Positions 33,173-49,899 of a DNA stretch of 64,000 bases are shown here, in pieces. The notes under the pieces were generated by a model. The model was not told where the DNA came from. It saw nothing but the letters and a program-made list of their open reading frames with translations, and did no database searches. Origin of the DNA: a phage; NCBI GenBank assembly GCA_020241865.1, contig GCA_020241865.1_4709.1. One strand, 5' to 3'. Positions within the stretch are counted from its first letter, which is position 1. Every line of letters starts with the position of its first letter. The translations under genes and the position numbers were made by a program.

Positions 33173-35785
33173 TTAAGCGTCCGGCGTAAAATCAAAAGGA
33201 ATGTCCGTACGAATGATATCATAACGTTTTCCGAGGAAATAAAACTCTTCGGGAACCTGACCGGGAATAATGCTATCACCGATGAACTGCGGATACGCCC
33301 AGATGTACTGAGTGAGTCCTTCGAACATATCCAGGTTATTTGCGTGGTTACCCATGATACGTTTCCAGAGTTCGCGTTTATACGGCGTTTTAACATCGAA
33401 ACCATAAAGCGGTGCAAGATCTTCACCAGGAACAAATCCCAGGTAATAGTGAATCTGACTAACCGGGAAACCAAGCGTATCTCGCGGAATGGTGATCGCT
33501 TGCTCAGCTTTGGTGACATGCGTTTCAATAATCCAGTCGTAACACTCTGAATAGAACCGATCGAATTTCTCTGGATTATACCACGCTTTGGGAAGATTCA
33601 GTTTCTCCGTGAACGCATTCGACATGATCGTCGGTAAGAACGGAAGAACACCGGTTTTGATCTGCGTGTATTTCGATTTTACCCGGTTAGCCAAATTCCA
33701 GCAACTGTATCCTAACTGTTCGTTACAAAACTCAACGTAGAGATCGTAATCACCGCCGGATAATGGGTTGTTGATATCACCAATGTCTGCAGCGTATTTG
33801 TTGGGATATCGGTTATTGAAAGCCAGTTTGGTTTGGTAATCGTAGATACACGGTTTGTTGTTCGCTGTATTGATCCACCACCAGGGTTCACCCACCTGTA
33901 CACAAATGTCCTGGACATGAGGGTAAATAATATCGGCAAACGCGGTTAACACATCCCCTAACCACGCCATCGCCTGTTGGTTACATGGAGACAGCAACCA
34001 GGATGGTGGTGTATATCCGGTTGCTGCGATGTTTCCTTCCCAATCCTGCTGCGCCCACTCGAACGGGCATGCTGTACTCATCAATTCGTAACTTAAACTG
34101 ATGGTGACAGAGAAATGGTGTTTTGCAGCATATGCGGCGAAAGCTTCATGCCACGCGATACAGGGTGGATTTAATACATCCGTGGTGTTCACCAGTAACT
34201 TACCCGCACTTGGCGTCCAGACAGTATCGTAGAAATGCGACATTCCAACATAATGCACTAATTCATCTTGATACCCCGCATAAACCAGGTTCTCAAATAC
34301 GCGCTCCGGCGTGATGTTGTAATGGTCATCATAAGCGGTTATCGCACGAAGTTCGTGTGGTGTACAGTGGTGACGATTAACCGTCATTTCCTGATACACC
34401 CCATCGATAGGAAGAATCTCGAGGGTTAAACCGAGGTCGATTGGCGTTTCCAGATAGGTCGTTTCAGTCGCACCTTCCTTATAATGTCGAGAACTCATGC
34501 TGAACATCAACGATGCTACCGATTCGAGTTCGATAGGCTCGTCAGCATAGAACCCCGCCATTGCGTCATTGAAATCGATCGTTACGATTGCGCTTCTACC
34601 GTCTTCAGAGACATCGGTGGCGTATCGGGTTAATGAGATATACTGACGGCTATCGTCTTTGTGTACGACGGTTAAAACCGGCGGGTTTTCGGTATCTGCA
34701 AAGTTACGCTGATCGCCAGTAAACGTGATCTTCGCTTTAAAGATCAAACCGAATAACGACGTCATGGGATCATACGCAATACAACCGTGATCCAGCGTAT
34801 CCGTTGTCCGCCATTCTATCCCGACCAACCCGTTAGCGGTATGGCATCGCATATACGCATTAAGTACCATGTCTTCACTGACAACCGCGAAGTTCTCTGT
34901 TGACTGACCGTTGATAATCCAATACATCGGTTGCCAGAGGTTACGCGTACCTTTTGCGTAGCGGTAGGTTGGTGCGCCTTTGGGGTTGCCATTATTAAGA
35001 TGGAATACTGCAGTACCTTGATAATGGTCGTTCGTATTAATCGGAACACTGTAAGCGTCACCGAGGTCCGTACGTTCCACCTTCGTGACCGTTGCGTTTT
35101 CAAATAACCCACGCAGCGCGGGTAAACCGATATCTTCAGGCGCGTTTTCTCGACGAATCGCATCCGCGATGCGATGGGCTAAGGCGGGGTAAATAGCTTC
35201 ACCCTGTTGTAGGTTTGCAAGACCTACAAAGCGATCAGGGTCGATACCAGCAATCAATAACTCAACATCACCCTTCGTTCTATCGTCGTTAAGATATTTC
35301 AGTCCGGTAAGGTCAAGATGCTGAATAAGCGACAACAGGTTGTATTTACGGTTTTCAACAGTTAGTACAAGATCGCCTGCCCAAACCAAACTTCCCTCAT
35401 CCGCTGTTACTTTAACAGATTGTCGGCCTGTGGTAGACGTTGTTGTCGTTTTATTTAATTGTCCTTGTAGGAAGTCGGTTGCGAGGTCAAAGGCAATGCC
35501 GTAACGGTCAGCGACCGCTTGCATGATTTCACGTAACTGGGTATCTTCTTCAATGATAATCTTGACAGGTATTCCCAGGAACGCTTTAGCGAGGTCTCGT
35601 TTAACCAACGAGACGAATACGGATTTGTAGTATCGGCTTCCATCTTTCCCTTTAAAAAGAATGGAGGTTGTTTCGGGTGCCGATAGAACACGTGCAAATA
35701 CAACATCGTCGGAAGTAAGAGAAAGTCCGTTTTTCTCGTTGACCAATCCTAGTATTTCATTTTGCGCGGTTTCATGTAACTTCAT
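33173..35785 (-). CDS. tail fibre/tailspike-like protein (870 aa) with shared N-terminal anchor domain
   Basis: N-terminal ~130 aa (YxSVFVSLVKRDLAKAFLGIPVKI, RYGIAFDLATDFL) paralogous to N-termini of 41406..41933, 42090..43844, 47493..48323. Confidence 0.7.
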   Translation of the reverse strand: MKLHETAQNEILGLVNEKNGLSLTSDDVVFARVLSAPETTSILFKGKDGSRYYKSVFVSLVKRDLAKAFLGIPVKIIIEEDTQLREIMQAVADRYGIAFDLATDFLQGQLNKTTTTSTTGRQSVKVTADEGSLVWAGDLVLTVENRKYNLLSLIQHLDLTGLKYLNDDRTKGDVELLIAGIDPDRFVGLANLQQGEAIYPALAHRIADAIRRENAPEDIGLPALRGLFENATVTKVERTDLGDAYSVPINTNDHYQGTAVFHLNNGNPKGAPTYRYAKGTRNLWQPMYWIINGQSTENFAVVSEDMVLNAYMRCHTANGLVGIEWRTTDTLDHGCIAYDPMTSLFGLIFKAKITFTGDQRNFADTENPPVLTVVHKDDSRQYISLTRYATDVSEDGRSAIVTIDFNDAMAGFYADEPIELESVASLMFSMSSRHYKEGATETTYLETPIDLGLTLEILPIDGVYQEMTVNRHHCTPHELRAITAYDDHYNITPERVFENLVYAGYQDELVHYVGMSHFYDTVWTPSAGKLLVNTTDVLNPPCIAWHEAFAAYAAKHHFSVTISLSYELMSTACPFEWAQQDWEGNIAATGYTPPSWLLSPCNQQAMAWLGDVLTAFADIIYPHVQDICVQVGEPWWWINTANNKPCIYDYQTKLAFNNRYPNKYAADIGDINNPLSGGDYDLYVEFCNEQLGYSCWNLANRVKSKYTQIKTGVLPFLPTIMSNAFTEKLNLPKAWYNPEKFDRFYSECYDWIIETHVTKAEQAITIPRDTLGFPVSQIHYYLGFVPGEDLAPLYGFDVKTPYKRELWKRIMGNHANNLDMFEGLTQYIWAYPQFIGDSIIPGQVPEEFYFLGKRYDIIRTDIPFDFTPDA

Positions 35786-35807
35786 TAAAAACCTCAGCCC
35801 TTTAGAA

Positions 35808-36449
35808 TTAAATGTACTGCTTACCGCCCACGAAGGAAGTTAACCAGTTCCCGCTGACGAGTTGTGATACCCAGCCTGGAACGGCTCTACCATTCTGGCT
35901 CATGATGTTACCACACCAACCAGGGAATCCGGGACGGATGTAATAGAAAGTTAAATTGTAGAGATGGCAATTCCATACCGCAACGTTATGTTTACCAGAA
36001 ACCGCTTTAAAGACAAACGCGACAGGTAACGGAGACGATAACAATTCGGTCACAGGGACGGCTGACCAGTTCGCATTCGCGTTCCATGGTTGCCAGGTAT
36101 GGCTGCGCGAGTCGCAATATACGTTACCGTTGTTACCGCGCCCACCCGCATTCCACCACAGCGACGGACTCATGTTCTTAAGTGAGGTAAATTGCTGCGG
36201 TGGAATATTAGGAATAATAACAGGGTTGGTACCTTGCCCATGTTTCTTTTCTTTTGCGTTCACATACCCGCTTATCGATTCGAGGTATTTGACACCAGGA
36301 TAATTATTCTGGACTTGTGTCGCAATATCACGAACATCGAACGTCCAGCAGATCATGGTGTTGTAGTAAGCATCGGTGTTGTCGTACCATGCGTTACCAT
36401 CTTGTAAACGTGCGCCACTATTCGGTGTTTTATCTGTGTTTATAGCCAT
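35808..36449 (-). CDS. hypothetical protein (213 aa), paralog of 36561..37277 (conserved C-terminal 45 aa)
   Basis: C-terminus RPGFPGWCGNIMSQNGRAVPGWVSQLVSGNWLTSFVGGKQY nearly identical to neighbour. Confidence 0.75.
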   Translation of the reverse strand: MAINTDKTPNSGARLQDGNAWYDNTDAYYNTMICWTFDVRDIATQVQNNYPGVKYLESISGYVNAKEKKHGQGTNPVIIPNIPPQQFTSLKNMSPSLWWNAGGRGNNGNVYCDSRSHTWQPWNANANWSAVPVTELLSSPLPVAFVFKAVSGKHNVAVWNCHLYNLTFYYIRPGFPGWCGNIMSQNGRAVPGWVSQLVSGNWLTSFVGGKQYI

Positions 36450-36547
36450 AGTGTTGTCCTATACTGCGATGATTGAGATATCGGATGCCGGATGTGTGTT
36501 GCCATCAGGTGGTACGTACAGAAACACCCACAGATAAAACAGTAGCT

Positions 36548-36578
36548 TATCTAACTTCAATTAAATTGAAGTTAGATA
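36548..36578 (-). terminator. perfect 15-bp inverted repeat (1-nt spacer), AT-rich hairpin overlapping stop codon of 36561..37277
   Basis: TATCTAACTTCAATT-A-AATTGAAGTTAGATA; followed on minus strand by U-rich sequence. Confidence 0.45.
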
Positions 36579-37277
36579 TTGTTTACCTCCAACAAACGAC
36601 GTTAACCAATTACCTGAAACAAGTTGCGATGCCCAGCCAGGCACTGCCCTACCGTTCTGGCTCATCACGTTACCTGCCCATCCCGGAAAACCAGGTCGGA
36701 AAATATATACTTGAATATGTGTTAAAGCGTTATCATTACCACCGCCAACAGCAACGTTACGACTCCCAGATGACGGGAAATATTCTTTTAAGAACAGAGG
36801 ATCGGTTGCTAATAAAGATGCGGGCCAAGGGTTCGCAGATGCATCAACATCGAATTCGGTCCATCGCCATTTACGTCCCGTGTCGAACCATGTCGATGTA
36901 CCACCACCCCTCACGACAAGATTGCGCGCATCATGGACATTATAAATTGATTCGATGTTACGCCATCCACCTTTTGCAGCGTTTGCTGCATAGCAAACCG
37001 CATTACCACCATTCTTCTTCTCGTAAACGGTTCGTTTGATATGAACACGGTCGATGAACGCTTCACCGTATTTGTTGACGAGCGTTTGTGCGATATCACG
37101 AAGATCGTGCATGTGAAAAGCGATGTCTTCGTTATGGAACCATGTTGTCTGGTTCCAGACGGTACCGTTTGGTTCGGCACACATCGATCGGATATTGTTG
37201 CGTTGATTAATCGCGATAAAACCCATTGTATACCTCGTTCCTATTCTCAAAAAGGAAATTTCATACGATGACGCCAT
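36561..37277 (-). CDS. hypothetical protein (~238 aa), paralog of 35808..36449
   Basis: ORF 36561..37313; N-terminal 12 codons of track ORF translate the GC hairpin; ATG 37277 has AGGAGG RBS. Confidence 0.7.
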   Translation of the reverse strand: MASSYEISFLRIGTRYTMGFIAINQRNNIRSMCAEPNGTVWNQTTWFHNEDIAFHMHDLRDIAQTLVNKYGEAFIDRVHIKRTVYEKKNGGNAVCYAANAAKGGWRNIESIYNVHDARNLVVRGGGTSTWFDTGRKWRWTEFDVDASANPWPASLLATDPLFLKEYFPSSGSRNVAVGGGNDNALTHIQVYIFRPGFPGWAGNVMSQNGRAVPGWASQLVSGNWLTSFVGGKQYLTSI

Positions 37278-37314
37278 AGCAGCTCCTCCTTCCCTTACGG
37301 GTTGGAGGAGCATA
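37275..37314 (-). terminator. GC-rich palindromic hairpin (family member, reverse orientation) containing the AGGAGG RBS of 36561..37277
   Basis: CTCCTCCTTCCC-TTAC-GGGTTGGAGGAG. Confidence 0.55.
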
Positions 37315-37319
37315 CTTAA

Positions 37320-37826
37320 TTACTTACTGATAACCTCAACGGAGTTGGGATCAGCGATCAATGCACGATCGGTAGAACAGTTGAAGAAGACCATACCAAC
37401 ACCATCACCGTTCGAGTTCAGGGTTGAACTTACATAAGACAGGGTTGGTTTATTCATGCGGTAGAAGCGTTCGCTGGTAGTGGTATTGAACCCCAGATCA
37501 ACGTAGTCTTTCACCGTGGTGTACAACTGTGTGGACTCGAAAACGGTTACCGGAGAGTCAACGGTAAACTGACTGCCTTCATCCACAACCAGAACTTTAT
37601 CGTTCCAGATTTCAGTGGTTGAAAACTTCGGTTTCCAGTGTTCGAATTCCTGGGTTGCGCCCCAGCAAGAATAAACAGCGAGATTGCTGTTCTTCTCAAC
37701 AGGTTTCAACCCCACCAGTTGTGTCAGGTCTTTATCCAGGTTCGGTAAGCCTTCCAGCGTAGCGCACCCACCCAGAGAAAGTACCATCAACATACCAAGA
37801 ACGATCGCGCAGAGTTTTTTCATCAT
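37320..37826 (-). CDS. predicted lipoprotein (~168 aa)
   Basis: signal peptide MMKKLCAIVLGMLMVLSLGGC with lipobox-like LGGC; ATG 37826 with AGGAA RBS; immediately downstream of tail fibre gene. Confidence 0.7.
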   Translation of the reverse strand: MMKKLCAIVLGMLMVLSLGGCATLEGLPNLDKDLTQLVGLKPVEKNSNLAVYSCWGATQEFEHWKPKFSTTEIWNDKVLVVDEGSQFTVDSPVTVFESTQLYTTVKDYVDLGFNTTTSERFYRMNKPTLSYVSSTLNSNGDGVGMVFFNCSTDRALIADPNSVEVISK

Positions 37827-37874
37827 TAGATTTCCTTGTGTGTTAACGGAAGTGACTTCCATAAGGATTGATGA

Positions 37875-40800
37875 TTACTTTTTGAGCGCTTTAAGTTCTT
37901 CTTCCAACGCTTCCACTTTTGCCGTAAGCTTCTGTACTTGTTTGATTAATGGAACCACCAAACGTTCGTACATGACACCTTCAGCGACGAGTCCGTTAGA
38001 AGAAACGATAGCGGGGTCATCTTCTTCTGTTGCATCACGCCAGTGCACGTACTGCGGTGCGATCTCGCCAACCTCTTCAGCAATCAACCCATACCAACCC
38101 CAATCCTTGTTGTCTGCTTCACATGTAGAACGATACCACACAGGACGCATCTCCAATACTTTATCCGCTTGTTCATCCGTGATATTCTCGATATCTTTCT
38201 TATAGCGACGCGACGACGTTGAACGAAACACATTGTTGATCCCAGAAACAGGACTGATATACATGTTAGCCCCGCTGGTTGTAGTGCTAATGTCCCATAC
38301 CGCAAATCCGCCGTTACTCCCATTTTTTACGATCAATGTGTTGGCAATAATGTCCAGGTTATTGTCGTAACCGGTTAATTGTCTTTCCGTTACATAACTG
38401 GATAGATTGACCGAGTAGTTCTTACTGTTATAACAACGACGCCATCCTGGGCTGTTGGTACTGCCATTATAGTTGTCGTAGCTATAAATGAACTCGGAGT
38501 TGGTTTTCGCACCACTGACGGAAGACGTGGTTGCGGTCGTAACACGGATGGTATAGTTTGTCATCCCGAAGCTAACGACCTCGATAACAGCACCAGCCAG
38601 AGGGATAATACCGCACTTGGTTTCACTGTCTGGGATGTATGCGCTGTCGGCAGCTGCGAAGGAGCAACGTGCGACCCAGGCGCGGGTATTGAATGCACCT
38701 TGGTTTTGCAACAACGTGATAAACGATGAGGTCGTAATCGAGCTGTTATTATCACCGGTGATCAACCAGCCGGTCGGGCATGCGGTTGCGCCAACGTTTT
38801 TCGCTGTTAACGTGATGTTCTGCGATCCGTCGAAGGCTACGCCACTGATAGTACGCGCAGTCTGCAGTTTCGTCGCCGTTGCTGCGTTCCCTGATGTGTT
38901 CTGGTTCCCTGCGGCGTTAACACCCGGCAGATTGATATTCGCACTACCGTCGAAAGACACCCCACCAATGGTGCGGGCGGTTTTCAGTTTTGTCGCCGTG
39001 GCGGCATTACCGGTCGTGTCTTGGTTACCGGTGGTGTTTACCCCAGGTAGGTTGATATTGGCCGTTCCGTTAAATGAAACACCACCAATCGTCCGTGCCG
39101 TTTGCAACTTCGTTGCGGATGCCGCATTCCCCGTGGTGTTTTGGTTACCTGTTGTATTCACACCTGGGATACTATCCTTAGATGTGTAGATCTGTGCCCA
39201 TTCCGACCAGTTCGCATCTGATGCATCACGACGCGAACGTAGGTAAGCTGGAGCGTGTGCGCCTGAAGTACCTGACCATCCAATAAGGATCTCACCTTCA
39301 CCTACTGCGGTTGCTCCTTTAAGATGAACAACGTTACCGTAGGCTGTAGGGTATCCGTTATTGTACGCTTCATACATCTGGATACCCGTATTGCTGCCCT
39401 GGGTCGCATTAGCTAAAGCGGTGACCCGTCCCTTGGAAGCGAGCACGTTAATGCTAAAGCTAATATCGGTTGTACCGTCAAAGGCGACCCCATTAATCCT
39501 CCGCGCTGTTTGGAGTTTCGTGGCAGTAGCCGCATTACCAGAGGTACTCTGATTGCCTGCTTTGTTCACACCTGGTAAATCAATGTTGGCGGTTCCATCA
39601 AAGGACACGCCCCCTATGGTTCTCGCCGTCTGAAGTTTTGTTGCTGAACCAGCGTTTCCGGAAGTGCTTTGATTACCCGCCGCGTTGACACCTGGTAGGT
39701 TAATGCTAGCAGAACCATCAAAAGAAACTCCACCGATCGTAATAGCTGTTCGCAACTTCGTGGCTGTCGCAGCGTTACCCGTCGTATTCTGATTACCAGC
39801 TGCATTGACGCCAGGTAATGCGATATCAGCTGTGCCATCGAACGCGACACCTCCGATTTTACGGGCGGTTTGTAGCTTGGTTGCTGTAGCAGCATTACCG
39901 CTGGTATTTTGCGTACCGGCTTTATTTACACCAGGAAGATCGATGTTAGCAGAACCATCGAAGCTGACGCCACCTATCGTTCTTGCAGTAGCAAGTTTAG
40001 CGGCTGTAGCAGCGACGTTACCGACTTTTAACCATTCTCCCCATGGACCATCCACACCGTTCCATGATGCCGTTAAACTGCGCACGTATATGTTTCCTGT
40101 ACGTACTGTGTAACGTTGTGTTCCACCGAATTGACCGGCTGGGAGCACTTCGATGTAACCTACAGCATTTGCTTCAGGGAAATTGTGGGCAGCATCGGCA
40201 TTCGTTGATGTTTGTTTGGACCAAATACCCACAGACGCTTCAACCGGACCGTAGGTATTCAGGTTTGCATCGGTTGGGAGTTGTCCTCTGAAACGACGGA
40301 ACGACGAGGCGTTAATTCCCAATATCGTTTGCATCCCTTCAACACCGGACTGCTGTAAGAGAGCGCGTGCGGTAGAAGTGATCGTTGCAAGCGCTACTTT
40401 ATCAGCACCTGTGAAATACGGTAATTTATTCGCTGATGTTGTTAGTCCAGAAAGGGCTGTGAGCAAAGCGTTCAGCGGTTGTTTGCCAGCTAAAGCGTTT
40501 GTTACAGTTGTCGCGAAGTTAGGATCGTTACCTAACGCTTGCGCCAATTCATTGAGTGTGTCCAACGCTTCAGGAGACGATCCGACAAGCGCTGCGATAG
40601 CACGCATCACAAATTCGGTATTCGCAATCTGCTGACTTTTATCGCCTTCGGCTGCGGTTGGTGTTGTCGGCTTATCGGTAAATGCCGGGCTAGAAAGATC
40701 CGCTTTAGCGCTAATTTGTGTTGCTAGGACTTTCCCGGCTTTCGCGGATAGTGCGAGTACTTCACTATCACTGTTCGTCGCCGAGGTTAACTGAACTAAC

Positions 40801-41399
40801 CCTTTACGTGTGGTACTAGCGTCCACTGCTGTGTACTTTCCTTTCGCAACATCCATCACAGCTTTAACTGCTTTTGATGTTGCGGCTTTGGTTTCGTCGT
40901 CACTATTTGTTTCGCTGCTAAGGATCGTTAATCCCCGTTTCTCGGTGGTCGCATCTGGTAAGAATGCGTCACTAACAACCTTCAATTCGATCGCATCGGT
41001 ATTGCTTACGACAACAAATACCTGACAATTTAACACACGTCCTGCCCCTTCGGAAGGCAGTGGTTTGTACCCTTCTGGCGCATTGCCGACAACGACAAGT
41101 TCACCCTGATCGTCGTACAGACCGATCTCACGCACCCAGAACCCACCTTGACTGGCGGGAATAATGCCTTCAACAACAATCCGGGTTGTGTCGTCAACAT
41201 CAATGTGGATGTTAGAAACTTCCCCACGATAAACTTCGTGTACGAGCGCTGTTTGGCTAACATCGGGGGTTGGTGTAGAGCCGTTTCCGTCACCAACAGC
41301 AAAATGTGTGATTCTTAGTTTCTCACCGTCAGGAAGTAGCGCTGCGGCAATACGTTCAGCGCCTTTATCGGTAATGACCGTTTTATAAGTTGTACTCAT
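37875..41399 (-). CDS. long tail fibre (1174 aa) with tandem 38-aa repeats and C-terminal S74-type intramolecular chaperone domain
   Basis: TTRKGLVQLTSATNSDSE fibre motif (cf. lambda Stf); ~8 repeats of ATKLQTARTIGGVSFDGSANINLPGVN; C-terminal SSRRYKKDIENI...WGWYGLIAEEVGEIAP matches auto-cleaving chaperone signature. Confidence 0.85.
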   Translation of the reverse strand: MSTTYKTVITDKGAERIAAALLPDGEKLRITHFAVGDGNGSTPTPDVSQTALVHEVYRGEVSNIHIDVDDTTRIVVEGIIPASQGGFWVREIGLYDDQGELVVVGNAPEGYKPLPSEGAGRVLNCQVFVVVSNTDAIELKVVSDAFLPDATTEKRGLTILSSETNSDDETKAATSKAVKAVMDVAKGKYTAVDASTTRKGLVQLTSATNSDSEVLALSAKAGKVLATQISAKADLSSPAFTDKPTTPTAAEGDKSQQIANTEFVMRAIAALVGSSPEALDTLNELAQALGNDPNFATTVTNALAGKQPLNALLTALSGLTTSANKLPYFTGADKVALATITSTARALLQQSGVEGMQTILGINASSFRRFRGQLPTDANLNTYGPVEASVGIWSKQTSTNADAAHNFPEANAVGYIEVLPAGQFGGTQRYTVRTGNIYVRSLTASWNGVDGPWGEWLKVGNVAATAAKLATARTIGGVSFDGSANIDLPGVNKAGTQNTSGNAATATKLQTARKIGGVAFDGTADIALPGVNAAGNQNTTGNAATATKLRTAITIGGVSFDGSASINLPGVNAAGNQSTSGNAGSATKLQTARTIGGVSFDGTANIDLPGVNKAGNQSTSGNAATATKLQTARRINGVAFDGTTDISFSINVLASKGRVTALANATQGSNTGIQMYEAYNNGYPTAYGNVVHLKGATAVGEGEILIGWSGTSGAHAPAYLRSRRDASDANWSEWAQIYTSKDSIPGVNTTGNQNTTGNAASATKLQTARTIGGVSFNGTANINLPGVNTTGNQDTTGNAATATKLKTARTIGGVSFDGSANINLPGVNAAGNQNTSGNAATATKLQTARTISGVAFDGSQNITLTAKNVGATACPTGWLITGDNNSSITTSSFITLLQNQGAFNTRAWVARCSFAAADSAYIPDSETKCGIIPLAGAVIEVVSFGMTNYTIRVTTATTSSVSGAKTNSEFIYSYDNYNGSTNSPGWRRCYNSKNYSVNLSSYVTERQLTGYDNNLDIIANTLIVKNGSNGGFAVWDISTTTSGANMYISPVSGINNVFRSTSSRRYKKDIENITDEQADKVLEMRPVWYRSTCEADNKDWGWYGLIAEEVGEIAPQYVHWRDATEEDDPAIVSSNGLVAEGVMYERLVVPLIKQVQKLTAKVEALEEELKALKK
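38790..40025 (-). repeat. in-frame tandem ~114-bp (38-aa) repeats inside tail fibre gene, two blocks (approx 38790-39180 and 39450-40025)
   Basis: periodic DNA/protein repeats; antisense ORFs here are repeat artefacts. Confidence 0.8.
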
Positions 41400-41405
41400 G
41401 GCGTT

Positions 41406-41933
41406 TTATCCCGGGTAAATAGTGATGACATCACCGATGACAGTTGCCGCACCGGCGCAAAGATACGCTGGTGATGTATCACGCTGGTTTGTCACGATAA
41501 GATCCAATTGCCCACGCCAAACCATGGAGGTATTCGCGATGGGAATCGAGATCTTCTTGGATGTGTCGTCACGAAAATCAATGACAGTAGCAAGGATAGC
41601 TGAATCAAAATCAGCATCGGTTTCAAAGATGAATCCGTACTGATCTGAAATAGCTTGAATAACCGCTCTTATAGTTGTTGTTTCAACCGACTCCAAAACG
41701 ATTTTCATCGGTATCCCTAGAAACGCTTTCGCGATATCACGTCGTGTGTAAGTGATAAAACTTTCACCACACCACCTTGTTCCTTCATTTGCTGTGACGA
41801 TCACTTTTGCCCTGTTAGCACCAGAACTCCTATCCAGGGTTAAAGTGAGATCGGAGTTGCTGAACACGCTACCGTTACGTTGGTTTATCAACGTAATCAG
41901 TTCGTCTTTCCACGGCAGGTAAAGTGAACGCAT
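41406..41933 (-). CDS. short protein (~175 aa) consisting mainly of the shared tail-fibre N-terminal anchor domain
   Basis: ORF 41406..41954; ATG 41933 (MRSLYLPWKDELI) with GGAGG RBS; YTRRDIAKAFLGIPMKI, DQYGFIFETDADF blocks. Confidence 0.65.
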   Translation of the reverse strand: MRSLYLPWKDELITLINQRNGSVFSNSDLTLTLDRSSGANRAKVIVTANEGTRWCGESFITYTRRDIAKAFLGIPMKIVLESVETTTIRAVIQAISDQYGFIFETDADFDSAILATVIDFRDDTSKKISIPIANTSMVWRGQLDLIVTNQRDTSPAYLCAGAATVIGDVITIYPG

Positions 41934-41950
41934 AAGCGCACCCTCCTCCA

Positions 41951-42001
41951 ACAATCAAATTAAGATGCAAAACGCCTCGAAACCGGAGTGCGATTCGAGG
42001 C
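41951..42001 (-). terminator. putative intrinsic terminator downstream of 42090..43844
   Basis: GCCTCGAA-loop-TTCGAGGC followed on minus strand by GUUUUGCAUCUUAAUUU. Confidence 0.45.
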
Positions 42002-42039
42002 AAACGTAAACAGTCTTAACGACCGCATAAAATTCCGCG

Positions 42040-42093
42040 CATATTACCCCCCCCCCCCTCGCTTCGTCGAGGTAGGGGAGGATAACACTTTAT
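42040..42093 (-). terminator. degenerate family-like hairpin containing a C12 homopolymer
   Basis: CATATTA-C12-TCG-CTTCGT-CGAGGTAGGGGAGG...TTTATG downstream of 42090..43844 stop. Confidence 0.35.
42047..42058. repeat. C12 homopolymer tract (intergenic)
   Basis: 12 consecutive C between 41933 start and 42090 stop. Confidence 0.7.
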
Positions 42094-43844
42094 GCCGCTA
42101 CATACCCAGGCCAACGTTCTCTTGGCCAGTTTGTTGCGCCCTGTCCAACGTTGTCCTTACCAGAAGTTACATTACTTACGTCCCAACCACTAAGATCCTG
42201 GTTAAATGCGGTGTTGTTGCGCATCATGAGGTCGATCCTACGTAACGATTGGGTATTCCAGCCGGAAATGTCTTGGTTGAATGCCGCGTTGTAAGCAAAC
42301 ATGTTAACAACGTCTTGTAATTTTGAAGTGTTCCAGCCGCTTATATCGCTATTGAACCGCATGTTCGAGAACATACTGCTAGCGTTGACAAGACTACCTG
42401 TTTTCCAGTTAACCAGCTTGTCCCCATCAAGTGCATAGCAGCTACTGAACATGTAACTCATGTCGTTAACTTTGGATACATCCCATTTATCTAACCCGTT
42501 ACCAACGAACTTGCGACAATCTTGGAACATCGAGCTCATATCGGTAACCTGGCTCACATTCCATTTGCTAAAGTCGAGGTTGAGGTTTGTGCATCCGGAG
42601 AAGGTTTGATACATACTGGTGATACGACTAACATCCCATTCTTGAATGTTAGGATCATTAAGTATAGATAAGAATTTGAACAATTCGTCTAACGACGTCC
42701 ATTTCTCTGGGATACGGTTTGGTACGGTACGGAGTGATAAAAGGTAACTGGTTGACGGAGAGCGGAACATACCGTTATCCCAATTTACGATTTCTGTAAT
42801 GTTGGACCCACGGATCGTTTGGCGTCCGTTACCATTATACACAGACCCTGTTGCAGTTATTGTATATTCGTTTGTATCAGCATACGTATATTCAGCCTGT
42901 GTAGGCCACTCACCTATTACATCCCTATTCCCATCGCCCCAATCAATGGAAATATCTATCCAACCATCAAGATCTAGGGTAACGGTCCCGCCATTGGTCT
43001 TCAGGACGTATTTACCTGCATTGTCGGTATAATAACAAACAATCATCGCACCGTACAGGTTACCAATTTGCCAATCATCCTTTTGAGTTACCGCGATATG
43101 TGCTGTGCCACGTTGTAGGAAAAGAACCGTACGGTTCTCGTCAGTCTGTAATGTGGTTAATGCTTGAGCCTTATCATCGTCGGTAATTTCACCAGCTTCC
43201 ACTAAAGCACTTAACATTCTTTCGAAGTATTCGATGGGTAATTGGCGTCCTACAGACATATCAACTGATGGAACAGCGAGATCATCCAATGCGGCGGCAG
43301 TTGCAAGCACTAATGATCCATTGGTGGTGTCTGTTTCTTGGAGGTAATGCAGTCCCGTAATCTGGTACGCTTGAATGATTGTAATCAGATCCAGCGTATC
43401 GTTAATGACCTGTACTTGTAAATGTCCAGACCAAACATAGCTGCTTTCAGCAATCGGTAATTCGACCGACTGAATACCCGATGTTTCAAAACTGATCTTC
43501 TTATTAAGATCGGCTTCCAGGAAATCAACCGCGAGGTCGAAATTTATACCGTACTTTTCAGCGATGGAATCTATGATGTTCCTGAAAGCAACATCGGTAC
43601 TTACGATGAATCGTAAAGGGATTCCTGTGAACGCATTAGCAATATCTCGACGAACATACGTAAGTGATTGTTCGAAGAAATAGGGACTGTTATCTCCAGG
43701 TTTGATGGTTACCTGACACATTTCAGGATGTTCAGCTGGGATGAACGATTCAAATTTAACATCGGATTCCTTCAACGAAAGCATGTTCTTCCGGTTTACC
43801 AGCGCCAGAAGATCGGCTTTCCATCCAGGATAAACAGTAGACAT
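42090..43844 (-). CDS. tail fibre/receptor-binding protein (~584 aa): shared N-terminal anchor domain plus C-terminal DUF285-like repeats
   Basis: N-terminus paralogous to 33173..35785; C-terminal repeats FxxCxxF...WDVSKV/ISGWNTS/LSGWDVSNVT; ATG 43844 with GGAG RBS. Confidence 0.75.
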   Translation of the reverse strand: MSTVYPGWKADLLALVNRKNMLSLKESDVKFESFIPAEHPEMCQVTIKPGDNSPYFFEQSLTYVRRDIANAFTGIPLRFIVSTDVAFRNIIDSIAEKYGINFDLAVDFLEADLNKKISFETSGIQSVELPIAESSYVWSGHLQVQVINDTLDLITIIQAYQITGLHYLQETDTTNGSLVLATAAALDDLAVPSVDMSVGRQLPIEYFERMLSALVEAGEITDDDKAQALTTLQTDENRTVLFLQRGTAHIAVTQKDDWQIGNLYGAMIVCYYTDNAGKYVLKTNGGTVTLDLDGWIDISIDWGDGNRDVIGEWPTQAEYTYADTNEYTITATGSVYNGNGRQTIRGSNITEIVNWDNGMFRSPSTSYLLSLRTVPNRIPEKWTSLDELFKFLSILNDPNIQEWDVSRITSMYQTFSGCTNLNLDFSKWNVSQVTDMSSMFQDCRKFVGNGLDKWDVSKVNDMSYMFSSCYALDGDKLVNWKTGSLVNASSMFSNMRFNSDISGWNTSKLQDVVNMFAYNAAFNQDISGWNTQSLRRIDLMMRNNTAFNQDLSGWDVSNVTSGKDNVGQGATNWPRERWPGYVAA

Positions 43845-43859
43845 AAGCACTCCAATCAT

Positions 43860-43876
43860 GGGGCGGTAACCGCCCC
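43860..43876 (-). terminator. short perfect GC hairpin between 43883..47479 and 42090..43844
   Basis: GGGGCGG-TAA-CCGCCCC; no U-run, may be RNA structural element rather than terminator. Confidence 0.4.
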
Positions 43877-43882
43877 CATCAG

Positions 43883-46800
43883 TTAAATTGTCGGTTTCAC
43901 GTCGCGTAATAGGGCAATATAATAGCCTAATCCTCGGAGGATCTCCCCACTCCAGAAACCAAAATACATTCCGTCTCTGCCGAGATTAGCACTATCTGGT
44001 GCAGGACTCCACCCACCATTCATTGCGTCATCAACGGTGTAGCGGTTGATGTAGTTTTCAACGATTTCATTATAAACGTTAACGGCAACAGGATAGCCTT
44101 TATCGTTGGGATGCCCATACAACATCGCTAACGACGCACCCGCTAACCATAATCCTGCCATATGACCAGTAAAGTCATTAGGGATAAAAGCAGGGGGTTT
44201 ATCCATCGGAAAATCCGTAGGAGATTGATAAGCGTTTTCCTGTTGATACGTAAACAAGAAATCGATCCAATGGCTGATGTAAGTGGTTAACTTCTCAGGG
44301 ACAGCCAAACCACGATCAAGCAGTCCGGCATAAAGCCTCACCACTGAAAAGAAAGCCCTCGGCTGATAACCAGGCCATGCTGTCTGATCGCCGAAGTGGT
44401 ACATCGTAAAATCATTAACTTTCGATCCGCTTGGCGCATCCCAACGATCCCACACGTACGCACTTGCTCCTGGCCCTAAAACCCCGAATTTCTGATAATA
44501 CCACTGCTGCGAGTCATACCAGAAATTCACAACATTCTGAATCATGAGGTCACGTCGTTCAGCCGATACGTCCATATCCAGGAAGACCCATGGATGTTGG
44601 TAGCCGGGATAAGGCTGACCACGCCAGCTGTCGAACGTCGGTGCGTTAGGGATATAGTTGTTCGAGAACGGAATAATACCCGGAGTATAAGGCAATGGAT
44701 CCAGACGTTGGTTGACAATCGTACAATCGCCAACACGCAATGTGCCCTCTGCCTCAAAGATTGCTTTTAACGTAAACAGCATGGTATATCCGTCATCCGT
44801 GGTGTAAGTTGACGGTGGATTGTTGATGGCGTAAAGCTTAAATACCCCTTCAGCGATATCGCTGTCATCAGGCAAGAACAGAATTTCAGTTGAACCGTCG
44901 CCCCACACAGGTGCGGAAGGTTTAGGGTCAGTATCAGCATGGCCAGGTTGATACCCTGAGAGCCTCCATCCGTTCGCCGAAAGCGTCAATGTATTTCTTG
45001 CTGTGGTGGCCGGTAGCATATACCACCATCGCCAACCATTTGCATCTTCTACACGAACGTTGTAGTCAATCGACGCGAAATAACTGACCTGCCTTACGAT
45101 CTGTTTTGCGGTTGGATTGAATTCAAATTGTCCGCCTGCCGCAGTAAGCTGCGCTTTTAGGAACAACCCATCCCAGGAATCTTCCACTGCTTCGCTGAAT
45201 TCTGTTGTGATTGCGATATCGTCTTTCCAGCCGACTTTATCAGCCGACATCAACACCGAACCTGTAACAGCATCACCGGTTGGTATTGAAGCTTCATCAA
45301 CCGCATCAGCGGGAATCAACGAGCCTATTTTGAAATCCCATCCTTTCGGTTCAACGCTGGAAGGTAATACCAGCTTGTACGTTTTGGCTTTCGCTTCGGT
45401 TTTGTCCAAAGAAAGCGATAATGAGATCTCAACCGGAATTGCAACGCCTGTCGTATCTTTACCGCCGCAGGTTACCCGAAGAATTGAATCACGATTGACG
45501 CGGAACGGAATGGCCTGCTGTTCAAGGTAAATTTGTGCTGAAGATGCTTGAATCACGATCCAACCATCGGTATCACGCGTGATTGTGAACGGCGCTTTCG
45601 ACGGGTATGTATACGTGTAAGCGATACCGTCGGTGTCGTAACGATCGGTTCCTTTTACTTGACGGAAGAACTTATCGTTAGCGTCAATACGGGTATATTC
45701 TTCAATCGTAAACAAAGACGCCTTGTACGCTTTCTGATAACGCTCCTGCTGCGTTAAACGGTATAAGGTGTAGGCTGCTTCACAAAACCACTGTTCAGCG
45801 TCTGACGCGTTTCCCATGTAGTCTCTGGTGACCGGCACCTGGATCGGTCGGTTATGCTGACACTCGTTCGTTTTGATAAGGTATCCGCCATATTCAACAG
45901 GAACACGCGGTGCCCATGCAACCAAGTAAGAACCGCTGACGGATTTATTTTTGAGTACGATAGTACCTACTTCATCGTCAGTACACGCTTCAAGATCGTC
46001 CCCGTCAGCACTTACGTAACGTTTTGTGCGTAACGCAACTTTCTCGATAGGGAACACCGTACCCTTTGTATCCCAGTCAATCGTCCCATCATCATTGGTT
46101 TTGAACACATCCGCGTTCAAATTCTGCCAGCCGAGTTTACCTTCATAGACCTGAACAACAAGATCCATGTATTCCCCGAACGTTGGTGCCCCATGTGTTA
46201 TTTTCCCGATACCGTTGGTGAATGTAACCGCTGTGTCATGGAAACCGCCATGTGTTGGGTAATCGTCTTTTGCAAGAGGATAATGGGCCAACACAGGTTG
46301 TTTACCATTAACAATCCAGTTAGCGATCCAGCGTGCCGGTGTATCCGGTGGTTCAAGGCCTGCATAGAACGCTTTTATATACGCATCGAACGATGCCTCT
46401 GCTAATGTGAGATAGTGCGCTTTAAGCTTGGTATCATCCGTTGTATGACTGAATATACCCGCACCCAGAATTAACAACGACTGTCCTTCTGTTGTTGCGT
46501 CACCATCCGGTTGTGCTTCTTGTCGTGTTGCTGCAATGAAATGACGGTTGTTTACCATGACCCCGCTTTCATTTAACACGTAATGATCGGTTTCTGGGTC
46601 GGTAAACGTTCCTGTGTTTCGGGTTAAGAATCTTGCATGGCCATAACCAACGAAATTAACCGGCGACGCTGTAATCATCCATTTACCGATAAGTTGAGCA
46701 ACATCATTATAACGCTCGGATGCGGTGATTTGTTTCACGTACCAGTCTTTATGGTTAAATGTCCAAAGCAGGAAGTAATAAGTTGTATCGATTTCCATCA

Positions 46801-47479
46801 CTGGGAACGTCGGCGTTAACGGCTCCAGCGTTAAGTAGTTGCTCCAGTCAATCTGTCCGCCAACCACCGATGGGGTAATCTCTAATAACTGACACCATTC
46901 ATAACGGTCCGGTACACTACTGGACGTTGTTGGTAAAGGTAACTTGTATACGCCAGTACGATTCAGATCGAACGCTTTTCTAGCCGATCCTAAATCAACA
47001 TAAATACTCGATGATGCGCTTGCACTATATGCCCCCAAAGCACCTAGCGTTGACCGATACATTGAGATGAACAACGTATCTTTCCAGTAAGGGTTATCCT
47101 TGGTTGGTTCTAAAGCGATTTGTGCGGAGATGCTGTTCCATGTCCCTAACTGGTATGTCGCATTTAAAGATTCTTCTGTGAAATAACTTTCTGCAATCGT
47201 CAGATGGAACTGCTCGTTCAATAACGCGAGTGCGGCGCGGCCAGTAACATCCTCGTTACCGGTTTCTTTTTTCACGATCGCGCCGAACGGAAACAGTGTC
47301 GCGAATGACCGTTTTGGTTTATTAACCGTAACCGTCCCTGTGTAATTTCCAACACCGTCGAGTTTTTGACTATCGCCAACAGCAGTGACTGCGATACCAT
47401 CAACCGGGATATCTGTTTTATTTAGTATATTGAGTTGGTCAACCAGATCCTGCTTATCGTCAGGTAAGAATGTCGCCAT
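43883..47479 (-). CDS. large hypothetical protein (1198 aa), likely tail fibre/tailspike or other virion protein
   Basis: long ORF within fibre cluster; ATG with AAGGTGGAG RBS; no shared N-domain, no catalytic motif recognised. Confidence 0.75.
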   Translation of the reverse strand: MATFLPDDKQDLVDQLNILNKTDIPVDGIAVTAVGDSQKLDGVGNYTGTVTVNKPKRSFATLFPFGAIVKKETGNEDVTGRAALALLNEQFHLTIAESYFTEESLNATYQLGTWNSISAQIALEPTKDNPYWKDTLFISMYRSTLGALGAYSASASSSIYVDLGSARKAFDLNRTGVYKLPLPTTSSSVPDRYEWCQLLEITPSVVGGQIDWSNYLTLEPLTPTFPVMEIDTTYYFLLWTFNHKDWYVKQITASERYNDVAQLIGKWMITASPVNFVGYGHARFLTRNTGTFTDPETDHYVLNESGVMVNNRHFIAATRQEAQPDGDATTEGQSLLILGAGIFSHTTDDTKLKAHYLTLAEASFDAYIKAFYAGLEPPDTPARWIANWIVNGKQPVLAHYPLAKDDYPTHGGFHDTAVTFTNGIGKITHGAPTFGEYMDLVVQVYEGKLGWQNLNADVFKTNDDGTIDWDTKGTVFPIEKVALRTKRYVSADGDDLEACTDDEVGTIVLKNKSVSGSYLVAWAPRVPVEYGGYLIKTNECQHNRPIQVPVTRDYMGNASDAEQWFCEAAYTLYRLTQQERYQKAYKASLFTIEEYTRIDANDKFFRQVKGTDRYDTDGIAYTYTYPSKAPFTITRDTDGWIVIQASSAQIYLEQQAIPFRVNRDSILRVTCGGKDTTGVAIPVEISLSLSLDKTEAKAKTYKLVLPSSVEPKGWDFKIGSLIPADAVDEASIPTGDAVTGSVLMSADKVGWKDDIAITTEFSEAVEDSWDGLFLKAQLTAAGGQFEFNPTAKQIVRQVSYFASIDYNVRVEDANGWRWWYMLPATTARNTLTLSANGWRLSGYQPGHADTDPKPSAPVWGDGSTEILFLPDDSDIAEGVFKLYAINNPPSTYTTDDGYTMLFTLKAIFEAEGTLRVGDCTIVNQRLDPLPYTPGIIPFSNNYIPNAPTFDSWRGQPYPGYQHPWVFLDMDVSAERRDLMIQNVVNFWYDSQQWYYQKFGVLGPGASAYVWDRWDAPSGSKVNDFTMYHFGDQTAWPGYQPRAFFSVVRLYAGLLDRGLAVPEKLTTYISHWIDFLFTYQQENAYQSPTDFPMDKPPAFIPNDFTGHMAGLWLAGASLAMLYGHPNDKGYPVAVNVYNEIVENYINRYTVDDAMNGGWSPAPDSANLGRDGMYFGFWSGEILRGLGYYIALLRDVKPTI

Positions 47480-47492
47480 TATTTACTCCACC

Positions 47493-48323
47493 TTAATCGT
47501 AACTAAAATAAAGTTTGCTGCTGACGCCGCTATCGGAATGAGGTTTTAATACCAGAACAGAGCTTCCGAACGACGGAAGTATTGGAACATCTAAATCGTT
47601 CGCATCGGCAACTTTTCCATTATAAACGACATTGGCTGTTGTGATGAGTTCCCAGGCTAAGGTATAACTCATTGAAATCAGCGACGAGGCTAAACGGAAC
47701 GCATTGTATCCTTCTGGAGTATCTCCAACCGACATCGAACGTATCGCATCTTGCGGCGGTAAATTTAGCTTGATGCCGTATGTACTGAATGTGTGGAAAT
47801 CCCCTTGTTTACTATCTTCTGGATAATACGAGGTTAGCGGTTCTCGTACCGTAAACAGTTCGCTAATATCGGTACTTACCGCTTTTCGTGCGAGGAATTG
47901 AAACGTACCGTACCACGATGCCGATGCATCAGAATGAACGGGAACAGATATGGTTTTCTCGCCGCTTTCGAATTTAACCTGTGACGCTAACGCTGAAGAA
48001 TCAAAGATCGTTAAATCGATCTTCAACCCATACTTCTTAAACAGCTGCGTTAAGCAGTCTGCTATCGTCGTCATATCAGCAACGACAATAAAAGGTTGGT
48101 GTTTGATAAAGAGCTTATTAATGTCTCGACGTTGAAGATAAACCTGTACGGAGTCTTCGATATAGTAAGTCGATTGTGGTGTGGGGACTATAGAAAGGCG
48201 TAACCGACCCGATGCACCATACCAGGCTGGCGTTAACATAATGTCTGACAGGGATAATGGATGCTGGAGATAGGTGTTTATTTTAGATAACACTTCCTCC
48301 TGCCATGATGCTTCAGGATACAT
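47493..48323 (-). CDS. protein (276 aa) carrying the shared tail-fibre N-terminal anchor domain
   Basis: YLQRRDINKLFIKHQPF and KKYGLKIDLTIFDS blocks align with the anchor domain of 33173..35785 and 42090..43844. Confidence 0.7.
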   Translation of the reverse strand: MYPEASWQEEVLSKINTYLQHPLSLSDIMLTPAWYGASGRLRLSIVPTPQSTYYIEDSVQVYLQRRDINKLFIKHQPFIVVADMTTIADCLTQLFKKYGLKIDLTIFDSSALASQVKFESGEKTISVPVHSDASASWYGTFQFLARKAVSTDISELFTVREPLTSYYPEDSKQGDFHTFSTYGIKLNLPPQDAIRSMSVGDTPEGYNAFRLASSLISMSYTLAWELITTANVVYNGKVADANDLDVPILPSFGSSVLVLKPHSDSGVSSKLYFSYD

Positions 48324-48382: not shown

Positions 48383-48439
48383 AAAAAAAAAACGAAAAAA
48401 TAGGAAAACGGTGTTCATCCTTTTTAGGGATGAACACCG
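48383..48439 (-). terminator. rho-independent terminator (12-bp stem followed by U-rich tract on minus strand)
   Basis: CGGTGTTCATCC-loop-GGATGAACACCG; plus strand preceded by A10 and A6 runs. Confidence 0.65.
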
Positions 48440-48459
48440 CGTACCGTTATATCGAACGA

Positions 48460-49781: not shown

Positions 49782-49899
49782 TTTTTATTCCTTAAACAAA
49801 AGATTGTCTTTTACGCGACATGATTACAAGTACACAGGTTACTGAATTTCTGTAAAAGTTAATTTTCGTAAACTAAAAGAAAATGTATCCGTGTTTCCT

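Follow-up and report, generated by a model that had tools for sequence, protein, structure and literature searches.

Introduction

Why should several neighbouring phage proteins begin alike and end differently, and how would such proteins be carried on the virion? The question is raised by the region 33173..48323 of a 64,000-nucleotide stretch of phage DNA (contig GCA_020241865.1_4709.1 of NCBI GenBank assembly GCA_020241865.1), hereafter the window. An initial annotation of this DNA recognized four proteins, of 870, 175, 584 and 276 amino acids (aa), sharing an N-terminal domain of ~130 aa, and interpreted them as multiple fibres or spikes docking on a common baseplate site, the two short ones being possible adaptors or remnants. 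Our analyses support, with moderate confidence, a partly different arrangement, in which five proteins of the DUF7941 family form a modular host-recognition set built on a common assembly domain and chained from the baseplate. The set is probably multi-specific. The window is 93% identical at the nucleotide level to Escherichia phage vB_EcoM_Goslar (Goslarvirus, Chimalliviridae), with ~96% identity in the conserved flanks, and on this comparison the source of the locus is a Goslar-like, contractile-tailed, nucleus-forming jumbo phage of Escherichia coli (Chimalliviridae).

Host finding by nucleus-forming jumbo phages is poorly understood, and their outer baseplate is largely unmodelled. The core of our finding is already published, because an April 2026 preprint on the Goslar virion (bioRxiv 10.64898/2026.04.21.720040) describes the DUF7941 family, including gp86, gp91, gp92 and gp93, the Goslar counterparts of four of the proteins studied here. 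The preprint lists ten DUF7941 proteins in Goslar (gp22, gp23, gp31, gp33, gp34, gp86, gp91, gp92, gp93 and gp161) and three in phage phiKZ (gp126, gp127 and gp143), and considers them virion-associated, probably attached to the outer baseplate and possibly chained into filaments bearing host-recognition domains. Purified gp22 formed filaments in negative stain, head-to-tail dimers were predicted with AlphaFold 3, a phiKZ gp126-gp127 dimer was fitted into hitherto unexplained density in the outer peripheral baseplate of phiKZ, and the N-domain of phiKZ gp127 was modelled against the outermost gp139 dimer (PDB 9xqd), leading to the proposal of a 'fibre cloud' for host recognition (bioRxiv 10.64898/2026.04.21.720040). 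Mass spectrometry of purified virions detected all four Goslar counterparts, as expected of structural proteins, at ~4.5 (gp86), ~1.2 (gp91), ~4.9 (gp92) and ~4.8 (gp93) copies per virion; the fibre gp90 was found at ~43 copies, gp22 at ~577 and gp23 at ~2144 (Table S4, bioRxiv 10.64898/2026.04.21.720040).

The present study is a confirmation of this already known system with several refinements, namely evidence for a fifth member of the locus with a glycosidase-like fold, a distinction between donor and cap members, a deletion scar left by the gene for the 584-aa protein, selection on the short members, and tandem fusions of the shared domain. It addresses domain sharing, family membership, architectures, folds, purifying selection and variation of the locus, and takes virion association, the formation of filaments by gp22 and the baseplate position of the phiKZ proteins from the preprint (bioRxiv 10.64898/2026.04.21.720040).

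Five proteins share an N-terminal domain

Every gene of the region is carried by the minus strand. Open reading frames (ORFs) for the 870-, 175-, 584- and 276-aa proteins are present at 33173..35785, 41406..41933, 42090..43844 and 47493..48323, respectively; ribosome-binding sites back the starts at 41933 (175 aa) and 43844 (584 aa), and the lengths along the locus (276, 1198, 584, 175, 1174 and 870 aa) agree with those called on related public contigs. Pairwise BLASTP related the 870-aa protein to the 584-aa protein with an expectation value (E) of 1e-34 (38-42% identity over 168-204 aa) and to the 175-aa protein with E 1e-22, the 175-aa to the 584-aa protein with E 1e-23, and the 276-aa protein to the 175- and 584-aa proteins with E 4e-9 and 1e-7; the weakest pair was 276/870 (E 0.004). 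Similarly, all four exceeded the gathering score (27 bits) of the Pfam family PF25613 (DUF7941), with 152.5 bits for the 870-aa, 76.9 for the 584-aa, 61.2 for the 175-aa and 40.2 for the 276-aa protein. Sharing of the domain among these four proteins is thereby confirmed far beyond chance, and the N-terminal similarity noticed in the initial annotation survives formal alignment.

The extent of the shared part differs among members. The PF25613 model spans 276 positions comprising an N-domain, a linker and a C-domain, and is kept whole by the 870-aa protein (positions 2-275) and by the 276-aa protein (positions 54-274 in Pfam; 2-277 of 282 in our own profile), to ~230 of 282 profile positions by the 584-aa protein, and as the N-domain only (Pfam positions 3-153 of 276) by the 175-aa protein. 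Complete divergence beyond the first ~130 aa, as originally described, is thus found in the 175-aa protein only, since the 870- and 276-aa proteins share the entire ~276-aa DUF7941 and the 584-aa protein most of it, and the common N-domain is better delimited at ~145-160 aa. The same two architectures exist in phiKZ, where gp127 is a complete PF25613 protein (97.5 bits) and gp126 consists of the N-domain only (36.6 bits). When the PDB was searched with a profile of the four N-domains of the window, the phiKZ gp127 structure 9xqd_0 was the top match, but with an E of just 0.058; in hhalign, gp127 reached a probability of 88% against the window-only profile and 98-99% (up to 99.4%) against family profiles.

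A hidden Markov model (HMM) of the N-domain, built from 122 sequences taken from the exhaustive profile search described below, was scanned against all 228 ORFs of the window and matched exactly five of them, the next ORF having an E of 0.33. The additional match is the 1198-aa protein (43883..47479, minus strand), the orthologue of Goslar gp92, whose residues 1-140 matched with E 1.1e-8 and were also recovered by hhalign (96.4% probability, E 1.2e-9). Membership in the locus is therefore five and not four. This divergent N-domain (aa 1-142, 47054..47479), delimited by HMM, hhalign and fold, had been missed by Pfam, where it falls below threshold, and by an HMM of four sequences. An AlphaFold2 model of the 1198-aa protein from its single sequence was uninformative (predicted local distance difference test, pLDDT, 30); with a 79-sequence alignment the model reached pLDDT 83.8 and a predicted template-modelling score (pTM) of 0.74, and Foldseek matched it to the phiKZ gp127 N-domain (9xqd_0) with probability 1.00 over 148 columns on the 150-residue target and a template-modelling (TM) score of 0.39. 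The model also resembles virion proteins of 145-173 aa from other jumbo phages.

The exhaustive profile search covered 1.84 billion representative proteins and returned 292 matches at E ≤ 0.001. Among the 148 best matches with a detected domain, 139 carried it at the extreme N-terminus. Family proteins range from ~130 to ~1500 aa and about half of them are short, the commonest partner being the DUF285/BspA leucine-rich repeat (LRR), present in 12 of 67 long members. A word-indexed homologue search with the N-domain profile retrieved nothing beyond close, Goslar-like relatives of the 175- and 276-aa proteins. Four matches, P0080 (cadherin/RTX), P0095 (spiralin), P0114 and P0129, were discarded as false positives, being repetitive proteins without a Pfam DUF7941, and with them the apparent partner domains Cadherin, RTX, Big_9 and Spiralin; a single GP38-adhesin partner could not be tied to a specific protein and was not relied on. 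The family is held to be exclusive to chimalliviruses in the preprint (bioRxiv 10.64898/2026.04.21.720040), an exclusivity that is not strict, because DUF7941 has been reported in Spaid-like proteins in a Spiroplasma genome paper (PMC13375240).

Different modules follow the shared domain

Four of the five proteins have orthologues in Goslar, with protein identities of 98.7% (870 aa, gp86), 85.7% (175 aa, gp91), 97.7% (1198 aa, gp92) and 95.3% (276 aa, gp93), the Goslar set (86-99% identity) sharing the order around the fibre gene and the domain architectures found here. The genes of the high-copy Goslar filament subunits gp22 and gp23 lie outside the part of the genome covered by the window. 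One public contig (L003, SRR16035824) encodes proteins identical to those of the window across the locus.

In the 870-aa protein, the complete DUF7941 (aa 2-277, 34955..35782) is followed by a domain of the type found at the N-terminus of the phage N4 sheath proteins (NCTSP_N, aa 285-450, 34436..34933; 41.2 bits) and by a TIM barrel (TIM-barrel_NCTSP, aa 476-837, 33275..34360; 286.4 bits), the Pfam cut-off being 27 bits for both. The protein matched N4 Gp64 (9lc0_M) with E 2.4e-30 and the N4 sheath protein gp65 (9lc0_I) with E 5e-7, the latter over residues 379-441 only of the 1382-aa gp65, and its residues 279-870 share 36-41% identity, across 95% of this stretch, with proteins of rV5-like or phi92-like phages annotated as 'lateral tail fiber' or 'non-contractile tail sheath'. 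In N4, a gp64-gp65 heterodimer builds the non-contractile sheath, with gp65 as the receptor-binding protein (PMC13434306). The 870-aa protein has the same unit of N-domain and TIM barrel as these sheath proteins (PDB 9lc0, 9yf4), but the unit is mounted on DUF7941 in a contractile-tailed jumbo phage and the full gp65 architecture is absent; judged by its domains, the protein has a module in common with the N4 sheath without being a sheath protein.

The region encoding this module (33173..34951) is common to N4-, rV5- and phi92-like coliphages, groups reported to depend on the NfrA/NGR pathway (wecB, nfrB; PMC8669472). In Goslar, a random barcode transposon sequencing (RB-TnSeq) screen on E. 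coli K-12 yielded only lipopolysaccharide (LPS) core genes (galU, hldE, waaF, waaC, rfaY, rfaI, rfaP, rfaG, rfaQ and rfaH), and the receptor was assigned to the LPS outer core (bioRxiv 10.64898/2026.04.02.716166). Targeting of NfrA/NGR by the N4-like module therefore finds no support in the published K-12 screen. The module of the 870-aa protein may bind something else here or act redundantly.

The 584-aa protein comprises a DUF7941 N-domain (aa 1-161, 43362..43844), a partial linker and C-domain extending to ~aa 229, and BspA-type leucine-rich (DUF285/PARCEL) repeats at aa ~383-570 (42135..42698), which were recognized both by Pfam (DUF285, 158.6 bits; cut-off 25) and by NCBIfam (PARCEL repeat TIGR02167, 75.8 bits; cut-off 30). 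The same repeats occur in BspA/DUF285/PARCEL proteins of bacteria and large phages; the bacterial BspA-type proteins are cell-surface adhesins or lipoproteins, whereas the repeat of the 584-aa protein is joined to an assembly domain of a phage. The nearest known relative of this protein is a paralogue, Goslar gp161 (44% identity over 91%).

Beyond its N-domain and a region of low model confidence (aa 143-280), the 1198-aa protein consists of a large module (aa ~280-1190, 43910..46645) in which carbohydrate-binding-like β-sandwich domains are combined with a barrel having the (α/α)6 glycoside hydrolase fold, the barrel being interrupted by β-sandwich insertions. The module belongs to the 'tail protein' family phrog_2871 (E 2.5e-295). 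In two relatives (P0195 and P0196) a Pfam-recognized DUF7941 is fused directly to a module of this type, the junction lying at residue ~283, and across relatives this 900-aa glycosidase module stands behind an N-domain of the divergent type, behind a canonical DUF7941 N-domain, or behind neither, the last in podophage and prophage tail proteins. The modelled barrel is alike in fold to the (α/α)6 families GH8, GH105/YteR, GH48, GH76 and GH88 with no significant sequence match to any solved enzyme; comparison of the protein with PDB sequences, alone and as the 79-sequence profile, gave nothing significant, and the module received neither a Pfam family nor a glycoside hydrolase assignment at sequence level. 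Some acidic residues, for instance D327, E331, D560, E562, D617 and E1179, are near-invariant in the family alignment. On the strength of the model we describe the module as glycosidase-like.

The C-terminal modules thus resemble known folds suited to a host surface (an N4 gp64/gp65-like TIM barrel, a BspA-type LRR, and carbohydrate-binding-like sandwiches with an (α/α)6 barrel), and a single assembly domain recurs as the mount for at least three different glycan-directed modules beside a classical tail fibre. The latter is the 1174-aa protein at 37875..41399 (minus strand; Goslar gp90 position), which lacks DUF7941 and matches the Pfam families Phage_tail_fib, Phage_fiber_2 and Peptidase_S74. 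It is a mosaic, with a collar-type N-terminus, ~40-aa repeats and, at the C-terminus, a self-cleaving chaperone (Peptidase_S74).

The short members are maintained by selection

Two proteins of the locus consist of DUF7941 alone. The 276-aa protein combines the N-domain (aa 1-159, 47847..48323) with linker and C-domain, which is the architecture of phiKZ gp127, and the 175-aa protein has the N-domain only (aa 4-149, 41487..41924), as in phiKZ gp126, with no signal of a C-domain; its stop codon lies 7 nucleotides (nt) before the start of the tail-fibre gene. The lack of an effector module in both, and the presence of only ~1 copy of Goslar gp91 per virion, could suggest functionless, decaying remnants of longer receptor-binding genes. 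The ratio of non-synonymous to synonymous substitution rates (dN/dS) speaks for their maintenance, however, with 0.19 for the 175-aa gene against Goslar and 0.10-0.29 for the 276-aa gene, which encodes the most variable member among relatives (65-97% identity). Furthermore, the length of the 175-aa protein is kept at 175-176 aa in ~35 sequence clusters spanning 58-99% identity, the 276-aa protein retains the whole DUF7941, each of the two architectures has a counterpart in phiKZ, and about half of all family representatives are short. Because of the low dN/dS of both genes and the constant length of the 175-aa protein, we regard decay as barely credible: the short members appear from their sequences to be functional parts under purifying selection, not the remnants envisaged as one option in the initial annotation. 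For the longer members, comparison with Goslar and other relatives gave dN/dS values of 0.04-0.08 (870-aa gene, with 0.04 against Goslar) and 0.08-0.12 (1198-aa gene). The overall range is 0.04-0.29 across those four members whose orthologues diverge in sequence; the 584-aa gene was left out, every orthologue retrieved being identical.

Proposed attachment to the baseplate and chaining

At present the locus is best explained by a chain of apparently monomeric subunits anchored at the baseplate, rather than by several fibres on one socket. The shared ~150-aa N-domain would be an assembly module and not a receptor binder. It would sit on the outer (peripheral) baseplate, like its phiKZ homologue gp127, whose modelled position there (PDB 9xqd) agrees with the attachment role initially assigned to the shared domain, and it would also accept the linker and C-domain of another DUF7941 protein, giving a head-to-tail chain directed outward. 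The variable C-termini would be the working ends, that is, the TIM barrel of the 870-aa protein, the LRR adhesin of the 584-aa protein and the carbohydrate-binding-like sandwiches with (α/α)6 barrel of the 1198-aa protein. If the linker and C-domain grip the next N-domain, as proposed in the preprint (bioRxiv 10.64898/2026.04.21.720040), complete members could extend a chain and members with only an N-domain could only end it. The 276-, 870- and probably 584-aa proteins could then both be held and hold the next unit, and the 175-aa and, as far as detectable, the 1198-aa protein could only be held. Together with the classical tail fibre, these proteins would equip the virion to contact or trim surface glycans by several independent routes before binding becomes irreversible. 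Chain order, donor and cap roles and the role in adsorption are what we infer from these architectures.

In the arrangement originally put forward, the proteins would instead be separate fibres or spikes, each plugged by its N-domain into a baseplate socket of the same type and branching without any chaining. Direct modelling of the phiKZ gp127 N-domain against the baseplate gp139 dimer (PDB 9xqd) would fit such sockets, as would the ~5 copies per virion of three Goslar orthologues (gp86, gp92 and gp93), which are near one per six-fold baseplate position, and the extreme N-terminal placement of the domain in 139 of 148 relatives. On the other hand, the high-copy members (~577 and ~2144 copies per virion) exceed six sockets, and gp22 makes filaments. 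Moreover, phiKZ gp126, an N-domain-only protein like the 175-aa one, was fitted on the linker and C-domain of gp127 and not on the baseplate, and six relatives from outside the window (P0076, P0086, P0104, P0144, P0163 and P0173) carry two or three tandem N-domains in one chain, which is consistent with N-domains being neighbours in the assembly. Searches of Pfam, PHROG and NCBIfam with the five proteins also detected no gp10-like or other known anchor domain and no trimeric β-helix, and the folds present (TIM barrel, LRR, (α/α)6) are of usually monomeric kinds. Independent docking on a shared socket consequently seems unlikely. From the initial proposal of a multi-receptor apparatus we retain the modularity and the varied, host-surface-like ends; the proteins do not resemble trimeric fibres or spikes, and the only work on the family, both experimental and by modelling, points to head-to-tail chaining of DUF7941 modules from a baseplate anchor.

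In the branched multi-tailspike adsorption systems of CBA120 (TSP1-4), G7C (gp63.1/gp66), phi92 and Klebsiella phage ΦK64-1, trimeric β-helix spikes are held at fixed branch points, and the anchors are T4 gp10-like or T7 gp17-like domains. The logic is the same, a conserved N-terminal attachment combined with an exchangeable receptor-binding or depolymerase C-terminus giving several specificities per virion, but these systems have no sequence or fold relationship to the DUF7941 proteins described here.

A more specific form of chaining from the baseplate, in which the locus encodes an ordered 'beads-on-a-string' adsorption organ extended by the 276-, 870- and perhaps 584-aa proteins and terminated by the 175- and 1198-aa proteins, is put forward only tentatively, and we think it doubtful in this strict form. 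If true, the enzyme or adhesin at the end of each baseplate-anchored filament would be determined by gene content and relative expression, the adsorption architecture would be built from chained, apparently monomeric subunits instead of trimeric fibres, and natural losses such as those of the 584-aa gene in Goslar and of the 1198-aa gene in one relative (L011) would re-programme host range with the baseplate untouched.

Several observations weigh against a chained host-recognition set. No experiment has placed the five proteins or their Goslar orthologues on the baseplate, and the peripheral baseplate map of Goslar has no assignable DUF7941 density (bioRxiv 10.64898/2026.04.21.720040). The virion preparations also held nuclear shell and PhuZ (bioRxiv 10.64898/2026.04.21.720040), so that, given these non-virion assemblies, detection at low copy number is weak evidence of incorporation. 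The evidence for head-to-tail binding consists of AlphaFold 3 predictions and of the filaments formed by gp22, a paralogue encoded outside the locus. The N-domain of the 1198-aa protein was modelled with moderate confidence (pLDDT ~55-90), its match to 9xqd having a TM score of just 0.39, and residues 143-280 could be a diverged linker and C-domain, in which case the 'cap' role proposed for this protein changes. Finally, the K-12 screen did not return nfrA, nfrB or wecB despite the N4-like module (bioRxiv 10.64898/2026.04.02.716166).

Because that screen gave LPS-core genes only, the DUF7941 proteins are possibly dispensable in the laboratory, or their targets redundant; they may act in a reversible first contact, matter only on encapsulated or O-antigen-bearing natural hosts, or be redundant. 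The same result would also suit proteins that ride the virion without any role in adsorption, the shared domain being an incorporation tag and the enzymes acting elsewhere, as in clearing of capsule or biofilm from the surroundings of released particles, destruction of receptors on lysed cells, or assistance in lysis. An endolysin gene (Hydrolase_2) indeed lies a few kilobases away in the same orientation as the DUF7941 genes, and a glycosidase-like fold is silent on the timing of its action. Against this, the DUF7941 genes flank the tail-fibre gene, their C-terminal modules have homologues in the receptor-binding sheath of N4 or among proteins of many other phages that are annotated as tail fibre or tail proteins, the phiKZ homologue is located in the baseplate, and trimming by virion-borne depolymerases is normally part of adsorption. 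A purely non-adsorptive role is, in our view, decidedly improbable.

Gain and loss of members across related phages

The locus differs between related phages, and close relatives vary by clean gain or loss of single members, providing natural variants for probing DUF7941 function and a handle for host-range engineering. Unlike Goslar, the phage studied here keeps the 584-aa member, and its distal fibre and accessory genes differ. The 584-aa gene stands between the gp91 and gp92 positions, and the alignment with Goslar breaks off at window position 42102 and resumes at 43848, two positions whose Goslar equivalents are neighbouring bases; the cassette absent from Goslar is 42103..43847. At the Goslar junction, TTGGAGTG/TAGTAGCATAA (the stroke marking the junction), the ribosome-binding site of the 584-aa gene is joined to its last 11 nt including the stop codon. 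The exact 584-aa protein is found on at least nine public contigs, and a 584-aa gene combining DUF7941 and DUF285 occupies the same position in the contigs L010 and L011, whose 175-aa protein is only 60% identical. The orphan ribosome-binding site with its 11-nt scar and the gene at the same position in diverged relatives lead us to prefer loss in Goslar: on these sequences, an ancestral 584-aa gene deleted in Goslar is the simpler explanation, and the same two observations speak against a recent insertion. In the contig L012 the 584-aa gene is split, and in L011 only a 255-aa gene is found at the position of the 1198-aa gene; these cases may include assembly artefacts.

The tail-fibre gene varies as well. 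The 1174-aa fibre aligns only partially to that of Goslar, its distal part having been exchanged, with distal pieces 55-68% identical to P1-like fibres and to siphophage fibres or proteins; Goslar instead has a 1324-aa fibre and a separate assembly protein. The fibre is truncated in L006 (270 + 151 aa) and missing from L012, although assembly artefacts may be included here.

Between the 584- and 175-aa genes, a run of 12 G (42047..42058) sits at the 3' arm of a G/C-rich hairpin located after the 584-aa gene. The run is 11, 12 or 13 nt long among otherwise near-identical contigs (13 in L003, a difference of one base from the window), and the 6-nt hairpin loop is found in either orientation (ACGAAG or CTTCGT). 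This variation could reflect slippage together with loop inversion, or homopolymer sequencing error.

Transcription and neighbouring genes

A consensus scan alone identified a strong terminator-like hairpin at 48408..48440 (minus strand), its 13-bp stem leading into a T-run; the first gene after it, at a short distance, is the 276-aa gene. This predicted hairpin probably marks the start of a transcription unit running through the five DUF7941 genes and the fibre gene. A scan for sigma-70 promoters gave 14 sites, fewer than the 31 in shuffled sequence; the sigma-70 consensus would not be expected to hold for a phage that has its own RNA polymerases. At 49864..49895 the window lacks an equivalent of Goslar gp96, a 501-bp gene of unknown function, both sides of the gap being collinear.

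Directly after the tail-fibre gene, at the Goslar gp88 position, a gene at 37320..37862 (minus strand) encodes a protein of 168 aa if the start is taken at MMKKLC, as in public contig calls. The product has a signal peptide with a lipobox-like end (LSLGG/C), its sole match being phrog_9559 (unknown function), and its Goslar orthologue, at ~737 copies per virion, belongs to the most abundant of the virion-associated proteins that lack an explanation. The product could represent a phage lipoprotein encoded beside receptor-binding genes, comparable to llp of T5, or a vesicle contaminant of the virion preparations.

The two genes at 35808..36449 and 36561..37313 (minus strand) form a paralogous pair (37% identity, E 1e-30) for which no match was found in Pfam, PHROGs or NCBIfam. 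The C-termini of both products carry the conserved sequence RPGFPGWxGNxMSQNGRAVPGWxSQLVSGNWLTSFVGGKQY. The window, L003 and L004 have the second copy, L006 has it in part, and Goslar, L002, L005 and L007 lack it. Goslar gp87 peptides have been detected in virions.

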